DNA of 64,000 nucleotides, taken from contig CBDCSU010000006.1 of NCBI GenBank assembly GCA_965221775.1, positions 2,208,001 through 2,272,000 of the forward strand, read 5' to 3'. The DNA is from Candidatus Latescibacterota bacterium. Lineage in GTDB: Bacteria > Latescibacterota > UBA2968 > UBA8231. The first letter of the stretch is position 1, and the number at the start of each line of letters is the position of its first letter. This document shows, one piece after another, positions 1 through 48,003 of this stretch. The notes beneath the pieces were generated by a model that was not told the origin of the DNA, ran no database searches, and saw only the letters and a program-made list of their open reading frames with translations. The translations under genes and the position numbers were made by a program.

Positions 1-1278
1 CCCGAACCCGCTGATCCCCGCCGTCGGGGGGCGGCCGGCCTGCAGCGGCCAGGCGGTCTGCTCGGAGGTGACTCGCAAAGGCAGCTGGCCCCAGTCCATC
101 CGCGGGTTCGGCTCGTGGAAGTGGAGGTGCCGGGGAATCACTCCCCGCTGCATGGCCAGCACCACCTTGATCAGGCCGGCGACCCCGGCCGCCGGCTCGA
201 GGTGGCCGATGTTGGTCTTCACCGAGCCGATCAGCAGGGGGCGGTCCGTCTCGCGTCCCCTGCCGTAGGCGGCCGCCGCGGCCTCGAGCTCGATCGGGTC
301 TCCCACCTCCGTCCCGGTGCCGTGCGCCTCCAGGTAGTCCACCTCCGACGGCTGGACCCCCGCGCGGGACAAGGCGTCCCCGATCACGCGCTCCTGGGCG
401 GCCGCGCTCGGCACCGTCAGCCCCGGGGTGGCCCCGTCCTGGTTGACCGCCGAGCCGCGGATCACCCCCCAGATGCGGTCGCCGTCCGCCTCCGCCTGGC
501 GCAGGGGCTTGAGGACCACGATGCCACAGCCTTCACCCCGCACGTAGCCGTTGGCCGCGGCGTCGAAGGTCTTGCAGCGCCCGTCCGGCGCCAGCATCCC
601 CGCCTTGCCGCGCAGCTCGGACAGCCGTCCCGACAGGATCAGGTGAACGCCCCCGGCGAGGGCGAGGTCCGCTTCCCCCCGATGCAGGGCGGAGACCGCC
701 TGGTGAATGGCCACCAGCGACGAGGAGCAGGCGGTGTCCAGCGCCATCGCCGGTCCGGCCAGATCCAGCGCGAAGGCGACCCGGCCGATGGCGGTGTTGA
801 AGGAGGTGCCGCTCACCGCGTAGAGGCTGTCCGCCGGCTCGGTGATCTCCCTTCGGGACAGGATCAGACTGCGGTAGTCGTGATTGCTGATCCCGGCGTA
901 CACCCCGGTGCGGCTGCCCTTCAGGCGGCCGGGATCGATCCCGGCGTCCTCCAGGGCCCGCCAACAGGTCTCCAGCATCAGCCGCTGCTGCGGATCCAGC
1001 AGGTCCGCCTCGACCGGGGAGATCCGGAAGAAGGCGGCGTCGAAGAGGTCGATCCTGTCGAGGAAGCCACCGAACCGGCAGGACTCGCTCTGAACCTCGG
1101 CGTCCGGGAACAGCTCTCCGAAGCGCCCGACCCCGGAGCCCGGAACGACCTCGATGACCCCGTTCTCCCCGGCTTCGAGGAGGCGCCAGAATGCGGACAA
1201 GCCCTCTGCCTTGGGAAACCGGCACGCCATGCCGACGATCGCTACCGGCCGTTGCGCGGAAACGGGTGACTCGGTCAT
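1..1278 (-). CDS. Type I polyketide synthase, N-terminal ketosynthase domain (partial, runs off left edge); sup-type PKS-like
   Basis: Not in the ORF track; translated by hand from ATG 1278: MTESPVSAQRPVAIVGMACRFP...DPQQRLMLE...GPAMALDTACSSSLVA...EAHGTGTEVGDPIE...GSVKTNIGHLE...AGISGFG. The Cys-His-His triad is intact. Confidence 0.95.
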   Translation of the reverse strand, partial: MTESPVSAQRPVAIVGMACRFPKAEGLSAFWRLLEAGENGVIEVVPGSGVGRFGELFPDAEVQSESCRFGGFLDRIDLFDAAFFRISPVEADLLDPQQRLMLETCWRALEDAGIDPGRLKGSRTGVYAGISNHDYRSLILSRREITEPADSLYAVSGTSFNTAIGRVAFALDLAGPAMALDTACSSSLVAIHQAVSALHRGEADLALAGGVHLILSGRLSELRGKAGMLAPDGRCKTFDAAANGYVRGEGCGIVVLKPLRQAEADGDRIWGVIRGSAVNQDGATPGLTVPSAAAQERVIGDALSRAGVQPSEVDYLEAHGTGTEVGDPIELEAAAAAYGRGRETDRPLLIGSVKTNIGHLEPAAGVAGLIKVVLAMQRGVIPRHLHFHEPNPRMDWGQLPLRVTSEQTAWPLQAGRPPTAGISGFG

Positions 1279-1330
1279 GATGCTCCATCCATGGGATTCG
1301 GAGGCGTCTCCAGATCGTTGCCTGCCCGGA

Positions 1331-1339
1331 ATGATACCA
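1331..1339 (-). promoter_or_regulatory. Candidate extended -10 (TGnTATCAT) for the PKS gene
   Basis: Reverse complement TGGTATCAT about 50 nt upstream of ATG 1278. Confidence 0.35.
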
Positions 1340-1440
1340 TGTGCCGGGGCTGGAGGCGACCCTGACGAGACGACATTGCACGAGGACCGGGCGGGACCGG
1401 GAATCTTCGATGACGGCCCGGACGGCGGCTGCCGGAGGAC

Positions 1441-1470
1441 TTGCCGGTGCAATGAAACATGCGCTACACT
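1441..1470 (+). promoter_or_regulatory. Candidate sigma70 promoter TTGCCG-N18-TACACT for the signalling operon
   Basis: Consensus-like -35/-10 pair about 58 nt upstream of ATG 1528. Confidence 0.4.
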
Positions 1471-1527
1471 CCCCGACTTGCGTACCTTACAGTCCGGCGA
1501 GCAGCGCATTGAAAGGCCAGTGACCGC

Positions 1528-2709
1528 ATGTCCAATCCTGGAACGACCATGGTGCCGAAGATCCTCGTGGTGGACGACGAGCCGGATCTCGAGGTGCTGC
1601 TCCGGCAGAAGTTCAGGCGCAAGACCCGCTCCGGACAGCTCAGCCTGATCTTCGCCCAGAACGGGGTCGAGGCCCTCAAGCAGCTCGAGGACCACGACGA
1701 TGTCGACCTGGTGCTTTCCGACATCAACATGCCCGAGATGGACGGTCTCACCCTCCTGCAGCAACTCGGCAGTCTCGACTACGACCTGCGGGCGGTGATG
1801 GTCACCGCCTACGGGGACATGAAGAACATCCGCACCGCCATGAACCGGGGCGCTTTCGACTTCGTCACCAAGCCGATCGACTTCGAGGATCTCGAGGCGA
1901 CGATCGACAAGACCCTCGAGCACCTGGTGATCATGCGAGAGGCGCTGCGGTCCCGGGACGAGCTGGTGGCCCTGCGCCAGGAACTCGGGGTGGCGGCGCA
2001 GATGCAGGAGTCCATCCTGCCCACCGATTTCCCCAGGGATCCCCGTTTCGAGCTTCACGCCTCCATGATCCCGGCGCGCGAGGTGGGCGGCGACTTCTAC
2101 GACTTCTTCCGGCTCGAGGATGAGCGCCTGGGTATCGTGGTGGCCGACGTATCCGGAAAGGGGGTGCCGGCGGCCCTCTTCATGATGGTGAGCCGCACCC
2201 TGATGAAGGGCACCGCCATCGGGGAGGGCGACCCGGGGGCCTGTCTCACCGAGGTGAACCAGCTCCTCACCGAGTCGAACGAGGAGTCGATGTTCGTCAC
2301 CGTCTTCTATACCAGCTTCAACCCGGAGACGGGGCACGTGGAATACGCCAATGCGGGGCACAATCTGCCGTACGTGGTCAAGCCCTCCGGCCAGGTCCGG
2401 CAGATCGACTGCCCCCCGGGTCTCGTCCTCGGCGTGCTTCCGGAGTTCGACTTTCCCGGCGGCAACCTCGACCTCGAGCCGGGAGACGCGCTGTTCTTCT
2501 ACACCGACGGCGTCAACGAGGCGATGGACGAGAACGGCGAGGAGTTCGGCGACGAGAGGCTGACCCGGGTCCTGGCGGAAGCCGCCGGATCGAGCGCCGC
2601 CGACTTCAGTCAGCGGATGGTGGAGGCCGTGCACGCCCACGCCGGCGAGGCCCCCCAGTCCGACGACATCACCTGCATGACCCTCCGCTACCTGGGAGGT
2701 GGCTCCTGA
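1528..2709 (+). CDS. Response regulator receiver + PP2C/SpoIIE phosphatase (RsbU/RsbP-like)
   Basis: REC motifs ILVVDDE, LSDINMPEMDG, FVTKP; SpoIIE motifs VGGDFYD, VADVSGKG, YANAGHN, FYTDGVNEA, SDDIT; alternative start 1549. Confidence 0.93.
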   Translation: MSNPGTTMVPKILVVDDEPDLEVLLRQKFRRKTRSGQLSLIFAQNGVEALKQLEDHDDVDLVLSDINMPEMDGLTLLQQLGSLDYDLRAVMVTAYGDMKNIRTAMNRGAFDFVTKPIDFEDLEATIDKTLEHLVIMREALRSRDELVALRQELGVAAQMQESILPTDFPRDPRFELHASMIPAREVGGDFYDFFRLEDERLGIVVADVSGKGVPAALFMMVSRTLMKGTAIGEGDPGACLTEVNQLLTESNEESMFVTVFYTSFNPETGHVEYANAGHNLPYVVKPSGQVRQIDCPPGLVLGVLPEFDFPGGNLDLEPGDALFFYTDGVNEAMDENGEEFGDERLTRVLAEAAGSSAADFSQRMVEAVHAHAGEAPQSDDITCMTLRYLGGGS

Positions 2710-2710
2710 G

Positions 2711-3898
2711 ATGACCCGGCTGGCCCTCCTCGCCGCCGCGGCGTTCGGGCTGGCCCCGGCGGCGGCGGTCGGGCAGGGGGCGCAGGGAGGCGGCGACGGG
2801 GTCCATGCCGACTCCATCCTCTTCGGCCAGTCGGCGGCGCTGAGCGGCCCGGCCGCCGAACTGGGCCGCAACATGAACCTCGGCATCCGCGCCGCCTTCG
2901 AGGAGGTCAACCGGTCCGGCGGCATCGGCGGCCGCCAACTGAAGCTCCTGGTGCGGGACGACGGTTACGAGCCCGAAGCCGCCGTCGCCAACACCCGGGA
3001 GCTCATCGCCCGCGGCGTCTTCGGCCTCATCGGCGCCGTCGGCACACCCACTTCCAACGCCGCCGAGCCGATCGCCAGCGGCGCCTCGGTCCCCTACATC
3101 GGACCCTTCACCGGCGCCGAGCTGCTCCGGGGGGACGACCAGCGCTACGTGGTGAACGTGCGCGCCTCCTACTTCCAGGAGACGGAAGAGATGGTGGCGC
3201 GGCTCACCGAGGACCTGGGCTTCCGCCGCATCGCCATCCTCTACCAGGACGACAGCTACGGCATGGCCGGCCTGACGGGGGTCCGCCAGGCCCTCGGCCG
3301 GCGCGGCATGGAGCTGGTGGGCGAGGTCACCTACATGCGCAACACGGTGGCCGTGAAGCGGGCCCTCCTCGGCCTTCAGGACAGCGACCCGGAGGCGGTC
3401 ATCATCATCGGCGCCTACCGCCCGGCGGCCCACTTCATCAAGTGGGCGCGGAAGATCGGCCTGGGCGCCGTCTTCGTGAACATCTCCTTCGTCGGCAGCA
3501 ACGCCCTGCTGCAGGAGCTGGGCCGCCACGGCGACGGCGTCGTGGTGACCCAGGTGGTGCCCTTCCCCCGGGACACCGGGATCCCGGTGGTGGTCCGCTA
3601 TCACGCCGCCCTGAAGGCGGTGGAAGCGGCGGCTCAACCGGGGTTCGTCTCCCTGGAGGGGTATCTCGCCGGGCGCCTGGTGGTCGATGCCCTGCGCGCC
3701 GCCACCGCCTCCGGCGACGGCGGACCGGTCCCGCCCACCCGCGAGGCCTTCCTCCGCGTTCTGGAGGAGGCCGGCCCCATCGACCTGGGGGGCTTCCGGG
3801 TCGAGTACGGACCGGGGGACAACCAGGGGTCCGACAGGGTCTTCCTGACCATGATCCGCGGGGGCCGGTTCGCCCCGGTGACCCACTTGTCGCGGTGA
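2711..3898 (+). CDS. Periplasmic ligand-binding protein (LivJ/type I PBP family) with signal peptide
   Basis: Signal peptide; FGQSAALSGPAAELG, DDGYEP, VGTPTS, NVRASYFQE, ISFVGS; no ABC permease or ATPase adjacent. Confidence 0.88.
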   Translation: MTRLALLAAAAFGLAPAAAVGQGAQGGGDGVHADSILFGQSAALSGPAAELGRNMNLGIRAAFEEVNRSGGIGGRQLKLLVRDDGYEPEAAVANTRELIARGVFGLIGAVGTPTSNAAEPIASGASVPYIGPFTGAELLRGDDQRYVVNVRASYFQETEEMVARLTEDLGFRRIAILYQDDSYGMAGLTGVRQALGRRGMELVGEVTYMRNTVAVKRALLGLQDSDPEAVIIIGAYRPAAHFIKWARKIGLGAVFVNISFVGSNALLQELGRHGDGVVVTQVVPFPRDTGIPVVVRYHAALKAVEAAAQPGFVSLEGYLAGRLVVDALRAATASGDGGPVPPTREAFLRVLEEAGPIDLGGFRVEYGPGDNQGSDRVFLTMIRGGRFAPVTHLSR

Positions 3899-6153
3899 AG
3901 GCGATGGACGACCGCATTCACGCCGCCTTCGCGTGGTTCCTGAAGCGGCTCCCGAGCCGTCTCGGGGCCCGTCTGCGCAGGGCCACGGGAGGCCGCTTCG
4001 GCATCGGCAGCCAGATCGTCGTGGTCCTGGGGGGCGGGGTGACCCTGACCATCGGCGCGGTGGTCCTGGCGCTGGTGCTGATGAGAGTCGTGAGCTCCCG
4101 CCAGAGCGAGGTCACCGAGGGCCACATGCCGGCCCTGGTGGCCGCCTTCGAGGTCGCCCGCAGCAGCTCCGAGCTGGTGCGGGCATCGCCCCGGCTCCTG
4201 GCCGCCGCCGATCCCGCGGGCCTCAAGCAGGTGGGACGGGACGTGGCCCGGGAGGAAGAAATCCTCCGGAGGTGGCTCGTGGAGGTGAAGCGGGCCGAGT
4301 CCAAGGGCGGCGTCGAGGGCGGGGTGGGGCACCGGGTCGTGCCGCTGGCCGACAGTCTGGTGGAGAGCATCACCCGGATCCAGGAGTCGGTGAGCCGCAG
4401 GATGGCGTACCGGGACCGGCTCCGGGAGCTGGAAGGGCGGGTGGAGAGCCTGGCCCTGGAGCTGCAGCTGTTGCTGGAGGAGCTGGTGGACGACCAGCAC
4501 TTCTTCATGCACACCGGACTCCGCGGCCTCGACGACGCCCCGGTCCCCGCCGCCCGGCGGACGTCGAGGTCCGAGCTCGCCCACTACGCCGGTCTCCTCG
4601 ACTTCCAGGCTTCGCAGAACGTCACCACCACCTTCGTGCAGCAGGCGATGACCGAGGATGACCCCGAGCTGTTGCGGGCGAACCGGGAGCGGGTGGAGAC
4701 GGCCATGAGCGACGTGAGGAGGGCCCTGTCCGGGATCCGGCCCGGGATCCGGTCGCGGCTCCAGCCTCGCGTGGAGGTCCTGAGAGATCTCTACGCCGCG
4801 TCCGACGGCGCTCTCGAGACCCGAACCCGCGAACTGGCGGAGATCCGCCGCTCCGAGGATCTCCTGGCGCGCAATCAGCAGACGACGGCGGACCTGGTGG
4901 CGATGGTGGAGGGCCTGGTGAAGGACGCCGAGGCCTCCACCCGGAACGCGGCCAATCGCTCGCGCAATCTGGTGCGCCTCGGGTTCTGGTTCCTGCTCGG
5001 GGTCACCCTGCTGACCCTGGTGGCTGCCTGCTTCGTCTGGAAGCTCTTCGGCGAGCGTCTGCTGGCGCGGATGGACAGCCTCTTCGACGCCACCCGGCGG
5101 ATGTCGGAGGGAGACCTGGAGGTGCAGGTGCGGATCGAGGGCAACGACGAGGTGACCGACATGGCCGGGGCCCTGGAGATCTTCCGGCAGCACGCCGTCG
5201 AGGTGCAGCGGCTCAATCTCGTGGAGAAGCTGGCGGCGGAGGTGCAGGCCAAGAACTCGGAGCTCGAGGCCACCAACTCCGAGCTGGAAACGACGCTGGA
5301 AGACCTCAAGCGCACCCAGCAGCAGGTCATCAGCCAGGAGAAGCTGGCCTCCCTGGGCGCCCTCACCGCCGGCATCGCCCACGAGATCCGGAACCCCCTG
5401 AACTTCGTGAACAACTTCGCCGGCCTGTCGTCGGAGCTGATCGACGAGTTGCGGGAAGAGCTGAAACGGGAGGGGAACGGCGAGGGCGAGGGGGACGGCG
5501 AGGGCGGCATGGACCGGGAACTGGTGGAGGAGATCCTCGACGATCTCGGCGGGAACGTGGTCAAGGTCAGGGAGCACGGCGAGCGCGCCAACCGCATCGT
5601 CGAGGGCATGCTGGCCCACTCCCGCAACGAGGCGGGACAGGTGGAAGCGGTGGACATCAACCTGATGGTGGACGAGTACGCCAAGCTCGCCTATCACGGT
5701 CTCAGGGGAACCGACTCGACCTTCAACGTCAACCTGGTGCAGGAGTTCGACGACAACGCCGGCGAGGTCGATGCCGTCTCCCGTGACTTGAGCCGGGTCT
5801 TCCTCAACGTGGTCACCAACGCCTGCCATGCCACCATCGCCCGCGGCAAGGAGGCGGAAGGGCCCTACGAGCCCACCGTGAGCCTGAAGACCGAGAGCCG
5901 CGGGGAGACCGTCTGCATCTCCATCCGCGACAATGGCACGGGTATCCCGGACCACATCGTCGACAAGATCTTCGACCCCTTCTTCACCACCAAGTCGGGG
6001 ACCCAGGGCACCGGTCTGGGGCTGTCGATCTCCCACGAGATCATCCGCGAGCACGGCGGGGAGTTCCAGGTGGAGACCGAGGTGGGGGAGTACACCGAGT
6101 TCAGGATCGTGCTGCCGCGAAAGCGCCTCGCTCCAGCGGCTGAGGGTTCCTGA
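3895..6153 (+). CDS. Sensor histidine kinase (TorS-like helical sensor, HAMP, HisKA, HATPase)
   Basis: Two TM helices; H-box AGIAHEIRNPLNFV; N-box NVVTNACHA; DNGTGI; FDPFFTTK; GTGLGL. GTG 3895 overlaps the upstream stop (alternative ATG 3904). Confidence 0.92.
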   Translation: MKAMDDRIHAAFAWFLKRLPSRLGARLRRATGGRFGIGSQIVVVLGGGVTLTIGAVVLALVLMRVVSSRQSEVTEGHMPALVAAFEVARSSSELVRASPRLLAAADPAGLKQVGRDVAREEEILRRWLVEVKRAESKGGVEGGVGHRVVPLADSLVESITRIQESVSRRMAYRDRLRELEGRVESLALELQLLLEELVDDQHFFMHTGLRGLDDAPVPAARRTSRSELAHYAGLLDFQASQNVTTTFVQQAMTEDDPELLRANRERVETAMSDVRRALSGIRPGIRSRLQPRVEVLRDLYAASDGALETRTRELAEIRRSEDLLARNQQTTADLVAMVEGLVKDAEASTRNAANRSRNLVRLGFWFLLGVTLLTLVAACFVWKLFGERLLARMDSLFDATRRMSEGDLEVQVRIEGNDEVTDMAGALEIFRQHAVEVQRLNLVEKLAAEVQAKNSELEATNSELETTLEDLKRTQQQVISQEKLASLGALTAGIAHEIRNPLNFVNNFAGLSSELIDELREELKREGNGEGEGDGEGGMDRELVEEILDDLGGNVVKVREHGERANRIVEGMLAHSRNEAGQVEAVDINLMVDEYAKLAYHGLRGTDSTFNVNLVQEFDDNAGEVDAVSRDLSRVFLNVVTNACHATIARGKEAEGPYEPTVSLKTESRGETVCISIRDNGTGIPDHIVDKIFDPFFTTKSGTQGTGLGLSISHEIIREHGGEFQVETEVGEYTEFRIVLPRKRLAPAAEGS

Positions 6154-6188
6154 TTCCACCAGCCAGGATTGGATTCCGAGGACAAGCG

Positions 6189-6959
6189 ATGAAGATCGAG
6201 TGCGCCGCCGTGGCGGCCCTGATGCTGGCCACCGGGGCCGCGGCGCCGGCGCAGACCGAGTTCCACCTGCAGTACGGCGAGTTGCTGAACCCGTTCTCCG
6301 CCACCGAAGAGGCGACCCTCGTGGTCACCGTCCAGAGGGCTTCCGGATGGCAGTTCGGGGACAGCTTCTTCTTCGTCGATTACCTCGACGACGGCGGCGA
6401 GGACGGCTTCAACGACAGGGAGTTCTACGCCGAGTGGTATCCGACGCTCAGCCTGGGCAAGCTCTCCGGCCGGGACCTGCGCCTGGGGCCGGTGGCCGAC
6501 CTCTCCCTCGTGGCCGGTATCAACGCCGGAGGCGACGGCAAGGTCGTGAAGTACCTCCCCGGTCTGAGGGCCTCCTGGGAGGTGCCGGGATTCCTGTTCC
6601 TCAACACCGATCTCACCGCCTATATCGACGATAACGCCGGCCTCGCCGCCGGCGGCCCCCCGGAGACCGGAAACAGCTTCACGCTCGACGTCAGCTGGGC
6701 CTTCCCCTTCGAGGCGGCCGGCCAGTCCTTCGCCGTCGGCGGCCACGCCGAGTACGTCGCCGGCAGCACCGACGAGGTCGATGGCGAGGTGAGGGGGTGG
6801 ATTCTCGCTCAGCCCCAGCTCACGTGGGACCTGGGCCGGGCGCTCATCGGGGCTCCCGGCCGGCTGCTGGCCGGCATCGAGTACCAGCACTGGCGCAACA
6901 AGCTCGGAACGGACCAGCAGGAGAGCACCGCCCAGCTGCTGCTGGTCTGGCGTCCCTGA
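6189..6959 (+). CDS. Outer-membrane nucleoside channel Tsx/OmpK-like (DUF5020-like)
   Basis: Signal peptide; GWQFGDSFFFVD, FYAEWYP, QPQLTWD, GIEYQHWRNKLG. Confidence 0.75.
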   Translation: MKIECAAVAALMLATGAAAPAQTEFHLQYGELLNPFSATEEATLVVTVQRASGWQFGDSFFFVDYLDDGGEDGFNDREFYAEWYPTLSLGKLSGRDLRLGPVADLSLVAGINAGGDGKVVKYLPGLRASWEVPGFLFLNTDLTAYIDDNAGLAAGGPPETGNSFTLDVSWAFPFEAAGQSFAVGGHAEYVAGSTDEVDGEVRGWILAQPQLTWDLGRALIGAPGRLLAGIEYQHWRNKLGTDQQESTAQLLLVWRP

Positions 6960-6971
6960 TCGGAGAGGGTC

Positions 6972-8711
6972 TTGGAAACCGCGCACGGCAACGAGAACAT
7001 CCGCTTCGAGCCGGATGAACAACCCCCCCACCCGGTTGCCGCCGGGGTCGGCTTTCAGGCCGCGGTGGTCGTCCTCGCCCCCGTGGTGCTCAGCGCCATC
7101 ATCATCGGGCGCGCCGGTGGTCAGGGTCCGGACTACCTGGCCTGGACCGCCTTCGCGGCGCTGGTGGTGAGCGGCGTTACCACGGTCCTGCAGGCGGTCC
7201 GCCTCGGGCGGATCGGGGCCGGCCACGTGCTCATCATGGGCACCTCCGGCGCCTTCATCGCGGTCTGCATCGCGGCCCTGGCCCAGGGGGGACCGCCCCT
7301 GATGGCGAGCCTGATCGCGGTCTCCGCGCTCTTCCAGTTCGCCCTGTCGGCGCGGCTCTCCCTGGTGCGCCGGGTGATCACCCCGGTCGTCTCCGGAACG
7401 GTGATCATGCTGATCGCGGTGACGGTCATGCCGATCATCTTCGGCCTGCTCACCGATGTGCCCGAGGGCACGCCCCCCGCCGCGGCGCCCTCCGCGGCGG
7501 GGGCGACCTTCCTCGCCCTGGTGGTGCTGGCCCTGCGCGCCCCGCCGGCCTGGCGGCTGTGGGCGCCCCTCATCGGCATCGCCGTGGGCTGCGTCACCGC
7601 CGTCCCCTTCGGGCTGTATGACGCCCAGTCCGTGATCGATGCGCCCTGGATCGGCTTTCCCGACAGCGCATGGCCGGGGCTGGACCTGAGCCTGGGCCCG
7701 GAGTTCTGGGCCCTGCTGCCGGCCTTCGTGGTCGTCACCGTCGTCGGCGCCATCGAGACCATCGGCGACGGGGTCGCCATCCAACGGGTCTCGAGGCGCC
7801 AGCCGCGGGCCACCGATTTCCGCGTGGTCCAGGGCGCTCTCAACGCCGACGGGGTGGGCAACCTGCTGTCCGGACTCGCCGGGACCCCTCCCAACACGAC
7901 CTACTCGACGAGCATATCCCTGGCCGAGCTCACCGGGGTCGCCGCGCGCCGGGTCGGGGTGTATATCGGCGTGATCTTCATGGTCCTGGCCCTCTCGCCC
8001 AAGGTGACGGCCCTGGTGATCGCCATCCCCAACCCCGTGGGGGCGGCGTATGTCACCCTGCTCATTGGCATGCTCTTCGTGCAGGGGATGAAGATCGTCG
8101 TCGCCGACGGTCTCGATCACCGCAAGGCGGCGATGGTGGGGCTGTCGTTCTGGATCGGCGTCGGCTTTCAGAACCAGGTGATCTTCGCCGATCTGCTGGG
8201 GAAGACCTGGGGCACCCTCCTCGGCAACGGCATGACCGCCGGCGGGATGGCGGCCATCGCCCTCACCGCCTTCATGGAGATCACCGCTCCCCGGCGCCGT
8301 CGCCTGGAGGCGAAGCTGGCGGCGGCGTCGCTGCCGGAGATCGACGCCTTCCTCGAGAAGTGGGCGGCCCGGGCGGGCTGGGGCGAGGCGTCGACGGGGC
8401 GGCTGCGCTCGGCGGGAGAGGAGACGCTGGCGATCCTGTTGCAGCAGGCGGAGGAGGACGGGGCGGCCGGCAGGGACCGGCGGCTGATCCTCACGGCGCG
8501 TCTTGCCGAGGGTGCCATGGAACTGGAGTTCTCGGCATCCTCCGGCGCCGGGAACCTGGAGGACCGGCTGGCCTTCCTGACCGACCAGCCCGAGTTCGTG
8601 GACGAGCGCGAGATTTCCTTCCGCCTGTTGCGGCACTATGCCACCTCGGTGCGCCACCAGAAGTACCACGACGTGGACATCGTCGCGGTGCAGGTCGCGC
8701 AATCGCCCTGA
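6972..8711 (+). CDS. Xanthine/uracil permease (NCS2) with C-terminal RsbW/HATPase_c_2-like extension
   Basis: NCS2 motifs LVVSGVTTVLQ, GTSGAFI, ETIGD, ADGVGNLLSGLAG-PNTTYS; about 140-aa soluble C-terminal domain; TTG start with GGAGAGG RBS. Confidence 0.85.
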   Translation: METAHGNENIRFEPDEQPPHPVAAGVGFQAAVVVLAPVVLSAIIIGRAGGQGPDYLAWTAFAALVVSGVTTVLQAVRLGRIGAGHVLIMGTSGAFIAVCIAALAQGGPPLMASLIAVSALFQFALSARLSLVRRVITPVVSGTVIMLIAVTVMPIIFGLLTDVPEGTPPAAAPSAAGATFLALVVLALRAPPAWRLWAPLIGIAVGCVTAVPFGLYDAQSVIDAPWIGFPDSAWPGLDLSLGPEFWALLPAFVVVTVVGAIETIGDGVAIQRVSRRQPRATDFRVVQGALNADGVGNLLSGLAGTPPNTTYSTSISLAELTGVAARRVGVYIGVIFMVLALSPKVTALVIAIPNPVGAAYVTLLIGMLFVQGMKIVVADGLDHRKAAMVGLSFWIGVGFQNQVIFADLLGKTWGTLLGNGMTAGGMAAIALTAFMEITAPRRRRLEAKLAAASLPEIDAFLEKWAARAGWGEASTGRLRSAGEETLAILLQQAEEDGAAGRDRRLILTARLAEGAMELEFSASSGAGNLEDRLAFLTDQPEFVDEREISFRLLRHYATSVRHQKYHDVDIVAVQVAQSP

Positions 8712-8817
8712 GCGGAGTGGCTCCCCACATGGTTGCCCCGAATTCCGTGGCATCCCTATCCTTCGTCCCGCGTCCTTCCATGCCAAGCTGCACACCCCCC
8801 CAGCGTTCCTCCGCGCC

Positions 8818-10002
8818 ATGACCGGGCCGGCACCCCCCAAGAGCTACCTCGAGGGATACGGGAAGGCCCGTCGGCACGACGCCGAGAGGGCCGACAACTA
8901 CATGCGCCACATCCACATCGGCGATCCTCCGCTGGACCAAGTGATGGAGGAACTGGCGTCCCTGCCGCCGCCGGACCTGCATCGCTTCATCCAGGCCGGC
9001 ATAGACCAGGAGAGCGAGGGCCTGCGCACCGCGCCGCGGGTCATGCGCGAGTTCTTCGACAGGGTCGACTCCGAGAATCCACCCTGGTTCGACTACGAGG
9101 CCTTCAGGCCCGGCGTCCGCGCCTTCCACTTGAACGCCACGCGGGTGCTCGTCGCCTTCGTCACGGGGGTGCTGATCGAGGGCTTCTCCACCCTCATCGC
9201 CAAGTCCTTCGCCACCACCGGGCGCGTGCTCAACCGGTCGACGGCGAGAAGGCGCCTCATGCAGAACAACCGGCATCTGCTGGAGGTGTTCTTTCCGGGC
9301 GGCCTGCGGCGCAACGGCGACGGCTGGAAGCTGTCCATGCGCCTGCGCTTCGTTCACGCCCGCGTGAGGCACCTGCTGGCGAACTCCGACGAATGGGATC
9401 AGGAGGCCCATGGCACGCCCCTGCACGCGGCGCACCTGGGCCTTGCCACGACCGTCTTCTCCATGCGCCTGCTGCAACACGCCGCCGCCGTGGGCGCCAT
9501 CTTCAACCAGGAAGAGCAGAAGAGCGTCATGGACATCTGGCGCTATACCGGCCACGTCATGGGTGTCCCCGAAGGCATGCTCTTCACCGACAGGGAAGAC
9601 GCGAAGGAGATCTTCAAGGTCGCTCACATGTGCGAGCCGGCCCCGGACCAGGACTCGGCCACCATGGCCAACGCGCTGATCGGGGCGATTCCACTGACCG
9701 CGGGAATAGCCGACCCGGACGAGCAGGAAGCGGTGATGAAGCTCGCCTACACTCTCTCCCGGGCCCTGATCGGCAACGAGATGGCCAACCAGCTGCAGTT
9801 TCCGAAGACCCGGACCTTCGGGGCCCTCTTCGCCTACCGGATCAAGCAACGCTTCCAAGGTCTGATCAAGAGCAAGGAGCTGCTCCGATCGGAGAACTTC
9901 TGCCAGCTCCTGGAGATCTCGGCGTACGACGAATCCGAGAAGACCGGCCTGAGCTACCGGATGCCCGACCACGTACGCGCATCCAGGTCGAGCCCCTGGT
10001 GA
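8818..10002 (+). CDS. Oxygenase MpaB / rubber oxygenase Lcp catalytic-domain family (DUF2236)
   Basis: GDPPLD, PPWFD, TGR, RLRFVHARVR (heme-His region), WRYTGHVMGV; start set at ATG 8818. Confidence 0.82.
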   Translation: MTGPAPPKSYLEGYGKARRHDAERADNYMRHIHIGDPPLDQVMEELASLPPPDLHRFIQAGIDQESEGLRTAPRVMREFFDRVDSENPPWFDYEAFRPGVRAFHLNATRVLVAFVTGVLIEGFSTLIAKSFATTGRVLNRSTARRRLMQNNRHLLEVFFPGGLRRNGDGWKLSMRLRFVHARVRHLLANSDEWDQEAHGTPLHAAHLGLATTVFSMRLLQHAAAVGAIFNQEEQKSVMDIWRYTGHVMGVPEGMLFTDREDAKEIFKVAHMCEPAPDQDSATMANALIGAIPLTAGIADPDEQEAVMKLAYTLSRALIGNEMANQLQFPKTRTFGALFAYRIKQRFQGLIKSKELLRSENFCQLLEISAYDESEKTGLSYRMPDHVRASRSSPW

Positions 10003-10005
10003 GGG

Positions 10006-12291
10006 ATGACGCTGGACCGCTACATCGCCGCTGTCCTCTCCTACCGGTGGCCCGTCGTCCTCCTCGCCTCGGTGGGGATGCTGGCCTTGGCGGCGGGTGC
10101 GCGCTTCATCACCGTCACCAACGACTACCGCATCCTCCTCGGTGAGGACAACCCGCAGCTGGCCGCCTTCGACGCCCTGCAGAACACCTACTCCGTCTCC
10201 AACCAGGTGTTGATCGCCGTAACGCCCCGGGACGGCACCGTCTTCAGCCGCCAGACCCTCGGCGTCATCGAGGAGTTGACCGAGGCCGGGTGGCGCACTC
10301 CCTACTCCGGCCGGGTGAACTCACTCACCAACTACACCCACAGCGAGGGCCTCGAGGACGACCTGGTGGTGGGCCCCCTCGTCGAGGACGCCCAGTCCCT
10401 GAGCGACAGGGATCTGCGGCGGGTGGAGGAGATCGCCCTCGGCGCGGCCGATATTGCCGGACGCCTCGTATCCCGGGACGGACGCACGGCCGGTCTGGCG
10501 ATCGACTTCGTCCTGCCCGAAGAGCACGACAAGGCGGTGGTGGAGATCACCGACTTCCTCCGTTCGGAGCTGGAGCAGGTCCGGGCGGACCATCCCGGCA
10601 TCGACTGCTACCTGACGGGCGACGTCGTCATGAGCCGGACCTTCGCCGACGCCACCCGGGACGATCTGGAGACCCTGACTCCGATCGTCTTTGTCATCAT
10701 CGTCGGCCTCACGGTGCTGATCCTGCGCTCCGTTCTGGGAGCCGCCGCGATCGTGGCGGTGCTGGTCTTCGTCGTCAACTCCACCGTGGGCTTCGCCGGA
10801 TGGAGGGGGGTCGTCTTCAGCCCCACCAATGCCGGCGTGCCGATCATCGTCATGGTCATCGCCATCGCCGATTCGATCCACATCGTCACGAGCGTCCTGC
10901 TGGGCCTGCGCCGTGGCCTGGAAAAGCACGCGGCGATCGCCGAATCGATGCGCATCAACGCCTATCCGGTCCTCATCACCTCGGTGACCACGGCCATCGG
11001 GTTCCTCAGTCTGAACGCCTCGGACTCGCCGCCCTTCCGGGTCCTCGGCAACTACGTGGCCTTCGGCGTGCTCTGCGCCTTCCTCTACACCATGACCCTC
11101 CTGCCCGCCCTGCTTTCCCTGCTGCCATTGCGGGCCCGTGCCGCCGGCGCGCAGCCGGGGAGAGCGGCGTTCTTCGACCGGCTGGCGGACTTCGTCATCG
11201 CCCGGCGCAAGCTCCTCCTCGGATCCCTCTCCCTGGGAGTAGTGGTCCTGATCATCGGCATCCCGCGCATCGAGCTGAGCGACAACATGGCCCGGTACTT
11301 CGACGACCGCTACGAGTTCCGGCGCCACACGGACTACATCGTCGACAACCTGACGGGCGTGGAGAAGCTGGAGTACTCCCTTGTTTCCGGGAGCGAAGGC
11401 GGCATCACCCGGCCCGAGTACCTGCGCAAGGTGGAGGCCTTCGCCGATTGGTTCCGCCAGCAGCCCGAGGTCACCCACGTGCAGGCTTTCCCGGATATCA
11501 TGAAACGTCTCAACAGGAACATGCACGGCGACGATCCGGCATACCATCGCGTGCCCGAAGACCCGGACCTGGCGGCGCAGTACCTGTTGCTCTACGAGCT
11601 CTCCCTTCCCTTCGGCAGCGACCTCAACGACCGCATCGACGTGGCCAAGTCGGCCACCCGCATGGTGGTGGTGACACGGAACGCCTGGTCCCGGGACCTG
11701 CGCGCTCTCGACCAGCGGGCCCTCGACTGGCTCGATGCGAATGTGCCCGACTTCTCCCAGGAGGCGTCCGGACTGAGCGTCGTCTTCGCCCACCTGTCCC
11801 TGCGGAACATCCACAGCATGCTGCGCGGGACGATCGTGGCCATGGCCCTCATCTCCTTCGTCCTCATATGGATCTTCCGGAGCGTCCGGGTCGGGCTCCT
11901 GAGTCTGCTTCCGAACTTCATACCGGCCCTCATGAGCTTTGGCCTGTGGGGCTATCTCGTGGGCCACGTGGGCATCGCTTCCTCCGTGGTGATCGCCGTC
12001 GTCTTCGGCATCGTCGTGGATGACACGGTTCACTTCCTGAGCAAGTACCTGAAGGCGCGGCGGGAGGGCCTTGAGGCCGCCGAGGCGGTGAGGTCCGCCT
12101 TTCACACGGTGGGTCATGCCTTGTGGACGACGACGGCGGTCCTCTCGGCCGGCTTCCTGGTCTTTGCCACATCGGGATTCGAGGTGAGCTGGGCCCTCGG
12201 CCTCCTCGTGACGTTCACGATCGTCTTCGCCCTGGTCGCCGATTTCCTGCTCCTTCCACCCCTGCTGATCGCCATCGACCGGAGGAAGTAG
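10006..12291 (+). CDS. MMPL/RND family lipid transporter
   Basis: Two repeats with IAIADSIH and GIVVDDTVH motifs, TSVTTAIGF, about 12 TM helices. Confidence 0.92.
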   Translation: MTLDRYIAAVLSYRWPVVLLASVGMLALAAGARFITVTNDYRILLGEDNPQLAAFDALQNTYSVSNQVLIAVTPRDGTVFSRQTLGVIEELTEAGWRTPYSGRVNSLTNYTHSEGLEDDLVVGPLVEDAQSLSDRDLRRVEEIALGAADIAGRLVSRDGRTAGLAIDFVLPEEHDKAVVEITDFLRSELEQVRADHPGIDCYLTGDVVMSRTFADATRDDLETLTPIVFVIIVGLTVLILRSVLGAAAIVAVLVFVVNSTVGFAGWRGVVFSPTNAGVPIIVMVIAIADSIHIVTSVLLGLRRGLEKHAAIAESMRINAYPVLITSVTTAIGFLSLNASDSPPFRVLGNYVAFGVLCAFLYTMTLLPALLSLLPLRARAAGAQPGRAAFFDRLADFVIARRKLLLGSLSLGVVVLIIGIPRIELSDNMARYFDDRYEFRRHTDYIVDNLTGVEKLEYSLVSGSEGGITRPEYLRKVEAFADWFRQQPEVTHVQAFPDIMKRLNRNMHGDDPAYHRVPEDPDLAAQYLLLYELSLPFGSDLNDRIDVAKSATRMVVVTRNAWSRDLRALDQRALDWLDANVPDFSQEASGLSVVFAHLSLRNIHSMLRGTIVAMALISFVLIWIFRSVRVGLLSLLPNFIPALMSFGLWGYLVGHVGIASSVVIAVVFGIVVDDTVHFLSKYLKARREGLEAAEAVRSAFHTVGHALWTTTAVLSAGFLVFATSGFEVSWALGLLVTFTIVFALVADFLLLPPLLIAIDRRK

Positions 12292-12294
12292 ATC

Positions 12295-13116
12295 ATGCCC
12301 CTGCCCCGGGTCCGACAAGTGCTCCGCTTCTCCTTCATGCCGGCCATGGCGTGGGCCCTTCTGGAAGTCCCGTCTCCCGCTCCATCCCGGGGATCCCCCG
12401 AGGAGGCGGCGGGGCTCCGGATCGCCAGGGAAGCCCGGTCCCTGGAGGAGGGCTTCGGCAGCTTCAGCGCCCGGCAGGTCATGGTGCTGCGCAACAAGCA
12501 GGGGCAGGAGAGCCGCCGCCAGCTGCGCGTGAGGGTTCTCGAGGTCCCGGGGGAGGGCGACAAGAGCCTCTTCGTCTTCGATGACCCTCCCGACGTGGAA
12601 GGCACGGCCCTGCTCATCCATGCGAACAAGGAAGACTCGGACGATCAGTGGCTGTATCTCCCGGCGCTGAAGCGCGTCAAGCGCATCAGCTCGTCGAACC
12701 GGTCGGGCTCCTTCATGGGCAGCGAGTTCGCCTATGAAGACCTGACCCCCCAGGCGGTGGAGAAGTTCACCTACCGGTACCTGCGGGACGAACCCTGCGG
12801 CCCGTCGACCTGCACGGTCTCCGAGCGGTTCCCCGTGGACAGGAAGTCGGGGTACAGCCGCCAGGTGGTCTGGCGCGACAAGGACGAGCTCCGGGTGTGG
12901 AAGGTCGAGTACTACGACCGCAAGGATGCCCATCTGAAGACGCTCACCCTCGATGACTATCAGCAGTACCTGGGGCGTTACTGGCGGGCGGGCGAGATGA
13001 CGATGGAGAACCACCTCACCGGCAAGAGCACCGTCCTGACCTGGACCGACTACCGGTTCGGTACCGACCTGGACAAGCGCGACTTCACACGGACCGGGCT
13101 GAGACGCGCCCGTTGA
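12295..13116 (+). CDS. Outer-membrane lipoprotein-sorting (LolA-like) protein
   Basis: FDDPPDVEGTALL, DDQWLYLPALKRVKRI, SFMGSEFAYED, YYDRK. Confidence 0.88.
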   Translation: MPLPRVRQVLRFSFMPAMAWALLEVPSPAPSRGSPEEAAGLRIAREARSLEEGFGSFSARQVMVLRNKQGQESRRQLRVRVLEVPGEGDKSLFVFDDPPDVEGTALLIHANKEDSDDQWLYLPALKRVKRISSSNRSGSFMGSEFAYEDLTPQAVEKFTYRYLRDEPCGPSTCTVSERFPVDRKSGYSRQVVWRDKDELRVWKVEYYDRKDAHLKTLTLDDYQQYLGRYWRAGEMTMENHLTGKSTVLTWTDYRFGTDLDKRDFTRTGLRRAR

Positions 13117-14421: not shown

Positions 14422-15360
14422 TCAGGCGCCGGCGAGGCCGGGATTCAGGATGTCGGGAAGGCTGAAGCGCACGTTCTCGACGATCCCGTCCATCGTCGAG
14501 ATCTCCAGTTGGGCGTGTCCCTTCAACCTGTCGATGAGCTCGTGCACCAGCTCCTCCGGTGTCGAGGCGCCGGCGGTGATGCCGATGCTCTCGACTCCCG
14601 CCAGCCACTCGGGATCCAGCTTTGAAGGATCCTCGATCAGATAGCTGGGCACGCCGATGTCGTTGCCCACCTCGCACAGGCGATTGGAGTTGGAGCTGTT
14701 CTCCGCGCCCACGACCAGCAACAGGTCGACCTCGGCGGCGAGGGCGCGCACCGCGGCCTGGCGGTTCTGGGTGGCGTAGCAGATGTCCTTCACGTCGGGT
14801 CCGAGGATCTTCGGGAAGCGTCGCCGCAGGGCCGTGATCACCTCCCGCGTATCGTCGACGGACAGGGTCGTCTGGGTGATGTAGGCGACCTTTTCGGGAT
14901 CCCGCACCTCGAGGGCCTCCACCCCTTCCGCGTCGCTCACCAGGAGAACCGGCCCCGGGATCTGTCCCACCGTGCCTTCCACCTCCGGATGGTTCTCGTG
15001 GCCGATGAGGATGATGTCGTACCCCTTGGCGGCGTAGCGCCGGCCCTCCTTGTGCACCTTGGAGACCAGGGGGCAGGTGGCATCGAGGGAACGCAGGTCA
15101 CGCGTCGCGGCATCCTCCTCGACCTTCCTCGATACGCCATGGGCGCTGAAGACGGTGATCGCGCCGTTGGGTACCTGGTCGATCTGTTCCACGAACCGGA
15201 CCCCCTTGGCCCGGAGGTTCTCGACGACCCGTGGATTGTGGACGATCTCGTGCCGTACGTAGATCGGGGGGCCGTACTGCTCCAGCGCTGCCTCGACGAT
15301 CTCGATGGCCCGCTCAACGCCGGCGCAGAATCCGCGGGGCTGGGCAAGAATGACTCGCAT
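14422..15360 (-). CDS. ispH: 4-hydroxy-3-methylbut-2-enyl diphosphate reductase
   Basis: [50 protein letters not shown]. Confidence 0.97.
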
Positions 15361-17804: not shown

Positions 17805-17819
17805 CGCTGAACCGATCCC

Positions 17820-21015: not shown

Positions 21016-21169
21016 GGATCTCTCCTTGGCAAGGGGTCCTGTCGTCGGGTGGCCGGTAACTCTAGGCAGGCCATGCCGGGCTGTCGAGCGGACCGGGAGC
21101 CGCTGCCGGATTCGGGAAGGGAGGCGCGGGCGGGACGGTGGGAGGCGCCGGGAGAGCATCCTCGGCGGG

Positions 21170-47891: not shown

Positions 47892-48003
47892 GGAAGGCTC
47901 TCCCGCGGGGGTGATCGATCGAGTGGGATCAAAGCCCCGGCCAGGGGGAGGTGCAAGTCCGGGACGGCTGGCTATCTTTGGCCGGCCTACGAGGAGAGAC
48001 GAG

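Follow-up and report, generated by a model that had tools for sequence, protein, structure and literature searches.

A candidate partner-switching circuit beside an NCS2-fold permease with an RsbW-fold pseudokinase tail

Five tightly packed genes on the + strand, at 1528-8711 of the 64-kb stretch of DNA analysed here (the window), encode a REC-PP2C phosphatase, a secreted binding protein, a membrane histidine kinase, a Tsx-family channel and an NCS2-fold permease that ends in an RsbW-fold tail. We tentatively favour reading this block as part of a partner-switching circuit, contributing sensor and phosphatase and lying beside the transporter that it most likely controls, with a kinase-dead tail that would bind an unphosphorylated STAS protein. 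The arrangement suggests that a switch normally used on sigma factors acts here directly on a transporter, which, if true, would be a new variant of partner switching and would do in trans what SLC26/SulP transporters do with their built-in STAS domain.

An earlier, sequence-only reading had described five close, co-oriented genes with these domains, a divergent PKS and a binding protein without an ABC permease or ATPase. These observations were confirmed, the five genes by Pfam profiles at unchanged coordinates, while the interpretation attached to them was partly supported. Codon-position GC (GC3 0.86-0.94) distinguishes the five genuine frames from numerous spurious high-GC ORFs, and the intergenic gaps are, in order, -11/+1, -4, 35 and 12 nt. 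The proposed end of the run at 8711 did not hold: after a gap of 106 nt, a tight run in the same direction (MpaB-like, MMPL, LolA-like and one unnamed gene) continues to 14384. Upstream, a 249-bp divergent intergenic region (1279..1527), in which a consensus scan found no sigma-70-like promoter, separates the phosphatase gene from the N-terminal ketosynthase domain of the PKS (1..1278, - strand; PF00109, E 2.3e-81; PF02801, E 8.2e-45), which starts at 1278 and is cut by the left end of the window.

The first gene (1528..2709, +) encodes a phosphatase of 393 aa, which matches the Response_reg (E 3.3e-26) and SpoIIE/PP2C (E 1e-55) profiles over their full length; its nearest NCBIfam model, Pseudomonas RssB, stays far under cut-off (109.5 versus 700 bits). 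It is followed by a LivJ-family binding protein (2699..3898, alternative ATG at 2711, +; Peripla_BP_6, E 3.8e-58) with a signal-peptide-like stretch at its N-terminus; among solved structures it is closest to 4kv7 (E 6.2e-62), an entry deposited as a probable Leu/Ile/Val-binding protein. ABC_tran and BPD_transp domains were found in none of the gene-like window ORFs scanned. The third gene (3895..6153, +) encodes a histidine kinase of 752 aa with the order TM1, a helical periplasmic domain of ~300 residues, TM2, HAMP, HisKA and HATPase_c. Its longest ORF begins at 3442, and the start common to its relatives is 3895, which overlaps the binding-protein stop by 4 nt; these two overlapping or abutting frames are encoded together with the phosphatase. 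A binding protein signals through a membrane kinase in TorT-TorS and LuxP-LuxQ, which the pair resembles in its 4-nt gene overlap and in having no ABC transporter nearby. Unlike those systems, it combines a Peripla_BP_6 protein with a kinase that lacks receiver and HPt domains and is not hybrid. The kinase had been called TorS-like; its HAMP architecture stands, and the likeness to TorS comes only from a sub-threshold Pfam match to TorS_sensor_domain (E 0.077) and an NCBIfam match across the TM2-HAMP-DHp part, with TorS absent among the PDB profile hits. Language-model look-alikes of the kinase are four-helix-bundle sensors (0.91-0.93), which we treat as a lead only.

Among 80 related loci, full-length phosphatase orthologues occur in nine, and the trio of phosphatase, binding protein and kinase lies within 10 kb of the permease in nine loci from Latescibacterota/Gemmatimonadota, Opitutales and Dehalococcoidia. 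The binding-protein/kinase pairing is kept in 9/9 of them, and the trio takes five arrangements relative to the permease: co-directional, co-directional but with the kinase and STAS genes lying further upstream, flanking, divergent and convergent. Mapping presence of the trio on a tree of 85 permeases requires at least three changes, two of them forced by well-supported branches. The trio adjoins the permease in at least three permease lineages and three phyla, a recurrence that chance would not easily produce; the loci with the trio are few, and some of them are close relatives. Co-localisation elsewhere, predicted for all five genes, was thus seen for the trio and permease, while the full five-gene order is restricted to 4/80 loci, all close relatives.

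The trio's proposed membership of a partner-switching system is borne out by the genes that adjoin the phosphatase in related loci. They encode kinases of the HATPase_c_2 family (E 6.1e-28) and STAS proteins (E 3.2e-23), the latter sharing a conserved loop, Tyr-Ile-Ser-Ser-Ser/Ala-Gly-Leu. A canonical RsbW-like kinase flanks the trio in six of the nine trio loci and a STAS gene does so in five; in L003 and L004, a STAS-kinase-binding protein-histidine kinase operon lies on one side of the channel-permease pair and a STAS-phosphatase-kinase operon on the other. Related loci therefore place side by side the same four gene types as the RsbK-RsbY-RsbV-RsbW system of Bacillus cereus, in which a sensor histidine kinase controls a REC-PP2C phosphatase acting on a phospho-STAS protein that an RsbW-type kinase re-phosphorylates. 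They differ from it in the pairing of the histidine kinase with a secreted binding protein, in the lack of a sigma factor and in the proposed STAS reader, a kinase-dead RsbW fold fused to a transporter. The window differs further: as first noted from its letters, it has no STAS gene, and neither six-frame HMM searches for STAS and a free RsbW-like kinase (best E 4.5-9) nor tblastn (no match at E<=1e-3) found one in the 64 kb. The circuit is locally incomplete, since a phosphatase without an opposing kinase makes no cycle. The closest relatives of the window's permease (P0004 and P0005) probably do have STAS, judging from STAS proteins 95% identical to that of L010, which presumably share contigs with them: these proteins belong to single-contig clusters whose contigs have the same lengths (143,028 and 795,955) as those bearing P0004 and P0005. 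The STAS and kinase genes of the present system are probably on the same replicon but outside the window, perhaps on the far side of the PKS.

The permease gene (6972-8711) matches Xan_ur_permease over residues 26-399 and continues into a tail of ~145 residues, for which an RsbW-like fold had been proposed. AF2 and Foldseek agree with this proposal and define an RsbW/SpoIIAB-fold domain at residues ~436-579 (8277..8711 with the stop codon, +). Modelled by itself, the tail reaches a pLDDT of 81.4 and a pTM of 0.80, and its top Foldseek matches (E 2.8e-8 to 2.5e-6) are Mycobacterium tuberculosis UsfX (8ih8_D, the best PDB match, E 2.8e-8), Bacillus subtilis RsbW (6m37_C, E 1.5e-7, TMt 0.83) and SpoIIAB (1l0o, 1tid and 1th8), with 9-17% sequence identity; the first histidine-kinase ATP-binding domain appears only at rank 20 (E 7.2e-4, TM 0.42). 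Profile comparison points the same way less firmly. Pfam HATPase_c_2 matches the tail at E 0.05 only, an RsbW HMM built here did not detect it, and hhalign against the free RsbW-like kinases of related loci gave a probability of 64% (E 6.5e-5, 84 columns), a moderate match at the level of sequence profiles that counts against the reading we favour. In this profile alignment, the tail has Ala where the free kinases have their invariant N-box Asn, and Ala/Ser where they have the G1 Asp; by eye, their invariant Gly-Gly-Leu-Gly (the Gly-rich G2 box) has no counterpart in the tail. The replaced Asn and Asp rule out an RsbW-type kinase, and without these ATP-binding residues the tail is a pseudokinase. 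UsfX, RsbW and SpoIIAB are anti-sigma factors with STAS antagonists; unlike them, the tail lacks all three elements, is fused to a 14-helix permease and has no known sigma factor partner. Its own invariant motifs are Gly-Glu-Glu-Thr-Leu and Ser-x-Arg-Leu-Leu. The permease-tail fusion is a large uncharacterised family, which comprises 480 clusters at E<=1e-10 and was confirmed in 492 genome stretches.

A complex model of the L003 tail with the L003 STAS protein scored 0.81, whereas the best of three controls, which were unrelated proteins and not other STAS proteins, scored 0.00. The docking mark is reached by 116/157 solved complexes and 2/215 mismatched pairs, counts that apply only roughly, because the present models were built with the analysis's own alignments. 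At least 96% of contacts are shared between runs, with a partner pLDDT of at least 91, and the runs place the phospho-serine loop of STAS on the invariant tail motifs (tail residues 48-49, 51-52 and 112-116; STAS residues 51 and 53-55). This position, against the N-box and lid region, presumably resembles that in kinase-substrate complexes, and the pass may reflect likeness to the solved SpoIIAB-SpoIIAA, RsbW-RsbV and UsfX-RsfB complexes. Across 58 tails, 6/21 interface residues are invariant versus 12/122 elsewhere (one-sided Fisher p 0.028), an enrichment that is gone when nearly invariant residues are added (8/21 versus 34/122, p 0.24).

On these grounds, we propose that a periplasmic ligand, not shown to be a nucleobase, would load the binding protein and thereby modulate the histidine kinase, which would phosphorylate the receiver domain and switch on the PP2C domain, as in B. 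cereus RsbK-RsbY. The phosphatase would strip phosphate from a small STAS protein, and a free RsbW-like kinase would put it on. Unphosphorylated STAS would then dock through its phospho-serine loop on the Gly-Glu-Glu-Thr-Leu and Ser-x-Arg-Leu-Leu motifs and change transport, so that the kinase-dead tail would sense whether STAS is phosphorylated but would not itself alter that state.

The wider neighbourhoods invite another interpretation, in which the block consists of two separate neighbouring units. In 71/80 related loci none of these genes (trio, STAS or kinase) lies within 10 kb of the permease and tail; either STAS binding, if real, cannot depend on adjacent genes, or the tail may serve some other, general function. 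The commonest neighbours are different genes, namely a lactate-type MFS transporter (24/81 loci, counting the first 22 kb of the window), a binding-protein/sCache/MFS module, carbonic anhydrases and a BicA-like SulP. The divergent PKS-phosphatase junction, in turn, is kept in L001 and L002, with a 68-residue ketosynthase remnant in L010. The trio might then feed a conventional switch with a sigma factor or other cytoplasmic target encoded elsewhere, whose output could influence the divergent PKS or the lipid-export genes downstream, and the tail might be a general dimerisation or regulatory domain that acts like STAS in SLC26 dimers and binds something other than STAS, or nothing. A dimerising tail is plausible, because RsbW and SpoIIAB both form dimers and NCS2 transporters function in dimeric form. 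We nevertheless consider two separate units rather unlikely: the trio recurs beside the permease across lineages, phyla and arrangements, the modelled docking site of STAS coincides with invariant residues of the tail, and the five-gene block and the window ORFs scanned yielded neither a sigma factor nor a transcription regulator.

The SulP neighbours raise the further idea that the tail pairs with a STAS domain built into a membrane protein, either a BicA-like SulP or some other one, which would couple two transporters, for example in bicarbonate or small-anion handling, and make the partner-switch genes a lineage-specific add-on. A SulP+STAS gene (BicA-like, 465 bits versus a cut-off of 880) lies two genes downstream of the permease in six loci, with a seventh copy further off in L071, and carbonic anhydrases abut the permease in eight loci (alpha-type in five; beta-type between two permease copies in three). 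Such coupling appears improbable for the present block, as the window contains neither a SulP nor a carbonic anhydrase and most loci lack both. The permease itself resembles SLC26/SulP transporters in joining a 7+7 inverted-repeat fold to a cytoplasmic C-terminal domain from the partner-switching toolkit. Its tail differs in being the RsbW half of the pair and not STAS, so in the reading favoured here STAS would have to come in trans and its phosphorylation could gate association.

The transmembrane part of the permease (6972..8276, +) has a non-canonical NCS2/NAT fold (7+7; Xan_ur_permease, E 5.9e-47). The whole-permease model matches UapA (5i6c, E 2e-14) and UraA in Foldseek, with SLC26Dg, BicA and prestin as lower hits. 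Like the canonical transporters UapA, UraA and XanQ, it keeps the fold and, aligned to UapA, the TMS8 motif Glu-x-x-Gly-Asp; unlike them, it carries the extra pseudokinase tail, reads Thr-Ser-Ile-Ser in TMS10 where UapA has Gln-Asn-Asn-Gly (signature Gln-Asn-x-Gly), and has Gln-Ala in place of Gln-His in TMS1. The TMS10 signature and TMS1 Gln-His are among the motifs that define canonical nucleobase transporters, and divergent prokaryotic NAT branches of unknown function exist, according to PMC5972032; by this definition, the permease fails two of three motifs.

These substitutions bear on the circuit first proposed for the block, in which the Tsx-like channel admits a nucleoside or nucleobase, the binding protein and kinase sense it, and the phosphatase acts directly on the tail of a nucleobase permease. 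That circuit is suggested by family names only (Channel_Tsx, Xan_ur_permease and NCBIfam matches of xanthine-permease type, the last all under cut-off; pbuX, 203.7 versus 414 bits), and one contact between a GHKL kinase and a PP2C phosphatase is known, the activation of RsbU by RsbT. It now seems very improbable. With the NAT signature and TMS1 His missing, nucleobase or nucleoside sensing and transport are without support, and the binding protein belongs to a LivJ/amide/urea-type family and not to the nucleoside binders. Direct action on the tail fares no better: phosphatases of this kind act on phospho-STAS, STAS is encoded beside the phosphatase in related loci, and the complex model pairs the tail with a STAS protein, a type that the window does not encode.

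A canonical nucleobase is accordingly an unlikely solute for the permease and for the adjoining outer-membrane channel (6189..6959, +; 256 aa with a signal peptide), and the two probably carry the same small solute across both membranes. The Channel_Tsx match of the latter (E 1.5e-6) is barely past its cut-off (28.6 versus 27.2 bits), and its language-model look-alikes are Channel_Tsx clusters (atlas score 0.98). By tblastn, a channel match lies directly upstream of the permease in 18/80 loci, two of them partial, and all 18 fall among the 24 loci from diderm phyla (L001-L024).

Five co-directional genes occupy positions 1528–8711 of the plus strand, and Pfam searches bore out the domain families that the sequence-only reading had named for them. 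The window has a G+C content of ~70% and abounds in long spurious ORFs, from which real frames were told by codon-position G+C (GC3 0.86–0.94, GC2 0.38–0.50). The first gene encodes a response regulator whose output domain is of the PP2C/SpoIIE type (Response_reg E 3.3e-26, SpoIIE E 1e-55); the match spans positions 2–191 of the 192-position SpoIIE/PP2C profile, as befits the PP2C-family serine phosphatase of an RsbU/RsbV/RsbW system. The second, whose ORF meets or overlaps the stop codon of the phosphatase gene, encodes a binding protein of the Peripla_BP_6 family (E 3.8e-58) that has a signal-peptide-like N-terminus. The third encodes a HAMP-HisKA-HATPase_c histidine kinase, for which a start at 3442 was replaced by 3895, the start that matches the 752 residues of its relatives and leaves a 4-nt overlap with the stop of the binding protein gene. 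The fourth and fifth genes, which follow after gaps of 35 and 12 nt, encode a 256-residue Tsx-family channel with a signal peptide and a 579-residue permease, in which a Xan_ur_permease domain (residues 26–399, E 5.9e-47) is followed by ~145 further residues without Pfam assignment, here called the tail. The PKS is indeed divergent from this block, with its ketosynthase starting at 1278 on the minus strand, and the reported lack of ABC components also held: the window ORFs scanned contain no ABC permease or ATPase, nor a sigma factor, a STAS gene, or a free RsbW-like gene. Within the window, Rfam gave zero matches, a promoter scan gave 0 promoter-like sites (0.5 in shuffles), and a terminator scan gave 8 terminator-like sites (5.3 in shuffles), none of them at gene ends.

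The tail was folded alone with 66 homologues (pLDDT 81.4, pTM 0.80); in the model, a strand leads into two long helices and a beta hairpin, after which a poorly ordered loop connects to a second hairpin. Foldseek comparison with the PDB returned UsfX (8ih8_D, E 2.8e-8) and RsbW (6m37_C, E 1.5e-7, TMt 0.83), with SpoIIAB (1l0o, 1tid, 1til, 1th8) also among the leading matches. UsfX, RsbW, and SpoIIAB account for all of the top 12 matches listed (E 2.8e-8 to 2.5e-6), and ATP-binding domains of histidine kinases first appear at rank 20 (E 7.2e-4, TM about 0.4). The modelled fold thus places the tail in the RsbW/SpoIIAB structural family (Bergerat-type alpha/beta, HATPase_c_2). Sequence support for this family is weak (Pfam HATPase_c_2 E 0.05): profile–profile comparison with six free RsbW-like kinases of related loci aligned 84 columns with an hhalign probability of 64% (E 6.5e-5), and the tail profile searched against PDB chains by sequence alone gave no meaningful match (a methyltransferase scored best, at E 0.69), so that fold comparison alone succeeded. 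The RsbW-like fold proposed earlier for the end of the permease therefore stands, but the residues that bind ATP have been lost. In the profile alignment, the invariant N-box Asn of the free kinases lies opposite Ala in the tail and their G1 Asp opposite Ala/Ser; the tail has an invariant Ser-x-Arg-Leu-Leu and, by eye, since the profile alignment stops earlier, no counterpart of their invariant Gly-Gly-Leu-Gly. Since the N-box Asn, the G1 Asp, and the Gly-rich G2 are absent, the tail is a predicted pseudokinase that should not bind ATP. It is the sole RsbW-fold domain of the window, which thus offers no active GHKL kinase with N, G1, and G2 boxes.

A search with the tail region returned 1416 proteins at E ≤ 1e-3 among 8000 candidates scored, and nearly all of the 120 matches listed have 575–580 residues and carry PF00860. 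Against 1.84 billion representatives, the tail profile matched 714 clusters at E ≤ 1e-3, 480 at E ≤ 1e-10, and 122 at E ≤ 1e-30; about 29 of the 150 matches listed have 540–650 residues with the tail at the end. Shorter matches look mostly like gene fragments, though some may be stand-alone forms: of 10 tail-only matches examined, 2 start inside the last membrane helix and are fragments, 6 have no more than 25 residues ahead of the tail, one proved to be full length, and the remaining one is an unusual protein of 397 residues. Genome contigs yielded 492 confirmed stretches encoding the permease–tail fusion, of which the best 80 were retained as L001–L080; their titles assign them to MAGs from Latescibacterota/Gemmatimonadota, Opitutales, Dehalococcoidia/Chloroflexota, Vicinamibacterales, and Spongiisociaceae. 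With at least 480 clusters at 50% identity across Latescibacterota, Gemmatimonadota, Chloroflexota, Acidobacteriota, Actinomycetota, and Verrucomicrobiota, the fusion proteins constitute a large unnamed family of SLC23/NCS2 fold.

The carriers are largely uncultured bacteria, and the permease sequences are 53–92% identical across six phyla. In the permease tree, Opitutales fall inside the Latescibacterota clade and Spongiisociaceae (Actinomycetota) inside the Chloroflexota clade, a nesting that suggests transfer between phyla. The titles of four of the 80 loci name the sponge-associated Candidatus Spongiisocius or its family Spongiisociaceae; with a sponge-associated genus among the carriers, both solute and signal may be part of host–symbiont exchange.

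The model of the whole permease (pLDDT 72) matches UapA (5i6c, E 2e-14, TMt 0.75) and UraA. By published criteria, motifs in TMS1, TMS8, and TMS10 together define a canonical nucleobase–ascorbate transporter; the same source reports that replacement of the Gln abolishes nucleobase binding and that divergent prokaryotic branches of these transporters without known function exist (PMC5972032). The permease family keeps the TMS8 Glu-x-x-Gly-Asp, as Glu-Thr-Ile-Gly-Asp aligned to the UapA motif. The TMS10 signature is lost, Gln-Asn-Asn-Gly of UapA standing opposite Thr-Ser-Ile-Ser with the final Thr-Gly alone kept, and in TMS1 the Gln-His pair is broken, the invariant Gln29 being followed by Ala where UapA has His. 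All NCBIfam xanthine-permease models were missed widely (pbuX, 203.7 vs 414 bits). Given the missing TMS10 and TMS1 motifs and the missed models, the permease sequence argues for a substrate that is probably not a canonical nucleobase, and the “xanthine/uracil permease” annotations in this family are probably wrong about substrate. The circuit first proposed for the block, which would sense nucleobases or nucleosides and let the phosphatase act directly on the tail, draws on the Channel_Tsx and Xan_ur_permease matches; with the TMS10 and TMS1 motifs failing, we regard it as highly improbable.

The channel meets the Channel_Tsx gathering score marginally (28.6 vs 27.2 bits), its language-model look-alikes are Channel_Tsx clusters (Atlas score 0.98), and a PDB search found no sequence match to any solved structure; the protein is a marginal, profile-based candidate member of the Tsx nucleoside-specific channel family. 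Carbonic anhydrase genes abut the fusion gene in 8 loci, as alpha-type genes in L011, L012, L015, L018, and L024 and as a beta-type gene between two permease copies in L048, L061, and L079, and a BicA-like SulP-STAS transporter lies near it in 7 (L003, L004, L014, L018, L019, L024, and L071). These neighbours hint that the family may handle bicarbonate or another small anion and not nucleobases.

Gene neighbourhoods were compared by tblastn of window proteins against the 80 loci, ORF clustering, Pfam searches on cluster representatives, and our own HMMs. The phosphatase, binding protein, and histidine kinase occur together within 10 kb of the permease in nine of the 80 loci (L001, L002, L003, L004, L010, L017, L020, L022, and L033), with binding protein identities of 56–94%. 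The co-localization expected for the block is thus found elsewhere for this trio and the permease, whereas the full five-gene order recurs only in L001, L002, and L020, and in L010 with the channel reduced to a remnant. In 18 of the 80 loci (2 partial matches), all within the 24 loci of diderm phyla, the channel gene immediately precedes that of the permease. The more distant trio loci have canonical genes of partner switching beside the phosphatase: free HATPase_c_2 kinases (E 6.1e-28), which have N, G1, and G2 boxes, flank it in six of the nine trio loci (L003, L004, L010, L017, L022, and L033), and STAS proteins with a conserved serine loop (E 3.2e-23) adjoin it in five (the same loci except L033). 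The layouts vary. In Opitutales (L017 and L022), a STAS–phosphatase–kinase–binding protein–histidine kinase operon points away from an ABC operon whose last gene is the permease, the two being divergent. In L003 and L004, the channel–permease pair lies between a STAS–kinase–binding protein–histidine kinase–(unnamed)–Amt operon and a STAS–phosphatase–kinase operon. L010 shows kinase–STAS–Amt–binding protein, then a ketosynthase remnant, then phosphatase–binding protein–histidine kinase–permease, and in the Dehalococcoidia locus L033 the partner-switch module with the trio is convergent with the permease.

On a FastTree phylogeny of 85 permeases, presence of the trio needs at least three changes, two of them forced by starred branches, and 0 of 500 shuffles needed as few. 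None of the trio, STAS, or kinase genes lies within 10 kb in 71 of the 80 loci, so the linkage is recurrent but confined to a minority. Other genes are commoner neighbours: besides the carbonic anhydrases and SulP transporters, they include a Peripla_BP_6/sCache/MFS module and an MFS protein passing the NCBIfam L-lactate transporter model (334 vs 320 bits) in 24 of 81 loci, counting the first 22 kb of the window. Such a distribution would suit the main alternative, in which the genes are independent neighbours and the tail has another function; the recurrence of the trio on the tree speaks for a functional link, and we consider the alternative rather unlikely.

The Peripla_BP_6/sCache/MFS module, a second conserved set that travels with the fusion gene, lies in the window at 16497–21240 on the minus strand. 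There an unnamed protein (missing in some loci) and a small sCache_3_2 protein accompany the MFS protein and a Peripla_BP_6 paralogue, which is a further binding protein lacking an ABC system. The module is also present in L001, L002, L005, L012, L014, L015, L017, L018, L019, L022, and L024, and the MFS gene alone directly follows the permease in 10 Dehalococcoidia loci. An Amt gene lies in or beside the STAS/kinase/binding protein/histidine kinase operons of L003 (2152–3537), L004 (2034–3428), and L010 (1346–2686), a placement that may link several transporters to the partner switch or may reflect a nitrogen theme. The permease reading frame of L002 (10001–11736) is broken near residue 110, possibly through an assembly error or as a pseudogene, and Pfam assigned no domain to the small ORFs that immediately precede the phosphatase in L001, L002, and L020.

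The statement that the window lacks a STAS gene was upheld by dedicated searches. For a single-domain STAS protein with a phosphorylatable serine, tblastn over the 64 kb gave nothing at E ≤ 1e-3 and six-frame HMM search a best E of 6.7; six-frame searches for a STAS or RsbW-like gene gave best E values of 4.5–9, and tblastn likewise turned up no RsbW-like gene. A STAS or kinase gene hidden in the window was thereby ruled out. A search with the STAS protein of L010 found 95%-identical proteins in single-contig clusters, on contigs of 143,028 and 795,955. The contigs with P0004 and P0005, the closest relatives of the window permease (tail identities to it of 97% and 88%), have the same sizes, and from this we infer that the same contigs carry the STAS proteins and these permeases. 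In L010, a 68-residue remnant of a PKS ketosynthase (4634–4834, minus strand) separates the binding protein gene from the phosphatase; a PKS was therefore gained or lost at that junction, and the gene order of L010 makes it plausible that the STAS and kinase genes of the window's genome lie beyond the PKS.

No sigma factor occurs among the scanned ORFs; a complex model makes the tail a candidate target of the switch. The L003 tail (58-sequence alignment) was modelled with the adjacent STAS protein (7-sequence alignment), giving a docking score of 0.81, with 0.00 for the best of 3 controls. Of 157 solved complexes, 116 attain the mark, as do 2 of 215 mismatched pairs; for the tail–STAS pair this calibration is rough only, because its alignments were our own. 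Agreement between runs covers at least 96% of contacts, with a partner pLDDT of at least 91, and residues 51 and 53–55 of the STAS serine loop contact tail residues 48–49, 51–52, and 112–116, which lie in invariant motifs. Invariant residues make up 6 of the 21 interface residues and 12 of the 122 elsewhere (p 0.028), an enrichment that is lost when nearly invariant residues are included (p 0.24). Since similar complexes have been solved, the high score may merely echo them; it indicates likeness and not binding.

Partner switching is textbook sigma-factor control, and to our knowledge its non-transcriptional outputs in Gram-negative or uncultured bacteria are mostly undescribed. In the mechanism we propose, the binding protein would signal to the histidine kinase, which would activate the REC-PP2C phosphatase; this would remove phosphate from the STAS protein, which would then dock on the tail and change transport. 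We hold this full chain tentatively, as a plausible reading of the block. A broader claim, that the kinase-dead RsbW domain of this SLC23/NCS2-fold family is a docking site for unphosphorylated STAS and that the cascade acts directly on transport and not on a sigma factor, is possible but doubtful. If the chain operates, a non-nucleobase solute would be transported at a rate that the binding protein and histidine kinase adjust within seconds and without transcription, and one non-transcriptional output would gain a physical address in a transporter that bears a kinase-dead anti-sigma domain. The fusion would be a mirror image of SLC26-STAS, with an association switchable by phosphorylation; it would provide a simple model of how an elevator-type (7+7) transporter can be controlled post-translationally, and would be relevant to the retention of a STAS domain by SLC26 transporters. 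Partner switching, REC-PP2C phosphatases, and binding-protein-dependent kinases were established before. Full-text literature searches listed no description of an NCS2-fold permease with an RsbW-fold or anti-sigma-like tail, nor of partner switching directed at a transporter. A comparable oddity is TciR, which joins REC to an RsbW-like domain and was reported as uncharacterised in 2025 (PMC12826045).

The periplasmic domain of the histidine kinase matches the Pfam TorS_sensor_domain below the cut-off (E 0.077), and its Atlas look-alikes are helical-bundle sensors (0.91–0.93). A PDB profile search with its N-terminal 420 residues found no TorS chain at E ≤ 10, the matches being HAMP-containing transducers only, over the last part of the profile (best E 0.0093). 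Unlike TorS of the TorT/TorS system, a hybrid kinase with receiver and HPt domains, the kinase of the block has only HAMP, HisKA, and HATPase_c.

After a 106-nt gap from the permease, a plus-strand run at 8818–14384 encodes MpaB-like (MpaB/Lcp-like), MMPL (RND-type), LolA-like, and unnamed proteins, followed on the opposite strand by LytB/IspH (14422–15360). Codon-position G+C identified the MpaB-like gene as 8818–10002 and the alternative ORF 8733–10145 as a wrong frame. In relatives, the MpaB/MMPL/LolA group travels with squalene-synthase-like genes (near it in L010, L017, and L022) and LytB genes, and the run would form a separate lipid-export unit, apparently for isoprenoids or hopanoids. 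Between 54000 and 56000, G+C falls to 0.61 against about 0.70 elsewhere around a DUF433/HTH gene (54424–55266) whose neighbouring ORFs have no Pfam domain; this segment may be foreign DNA. The window further contains three PhyH dioxygenase genes (21493–22269, 47094–48068, and 61773–62555) and members of the eukaryote-like WD40 (42597–44165), Kelch (57903–58853), and GPP34 (Golgi phosphoprotein 3-like, 31580–32239) families, and GPP34 homologues also adjoin the permease in 11 related loci.
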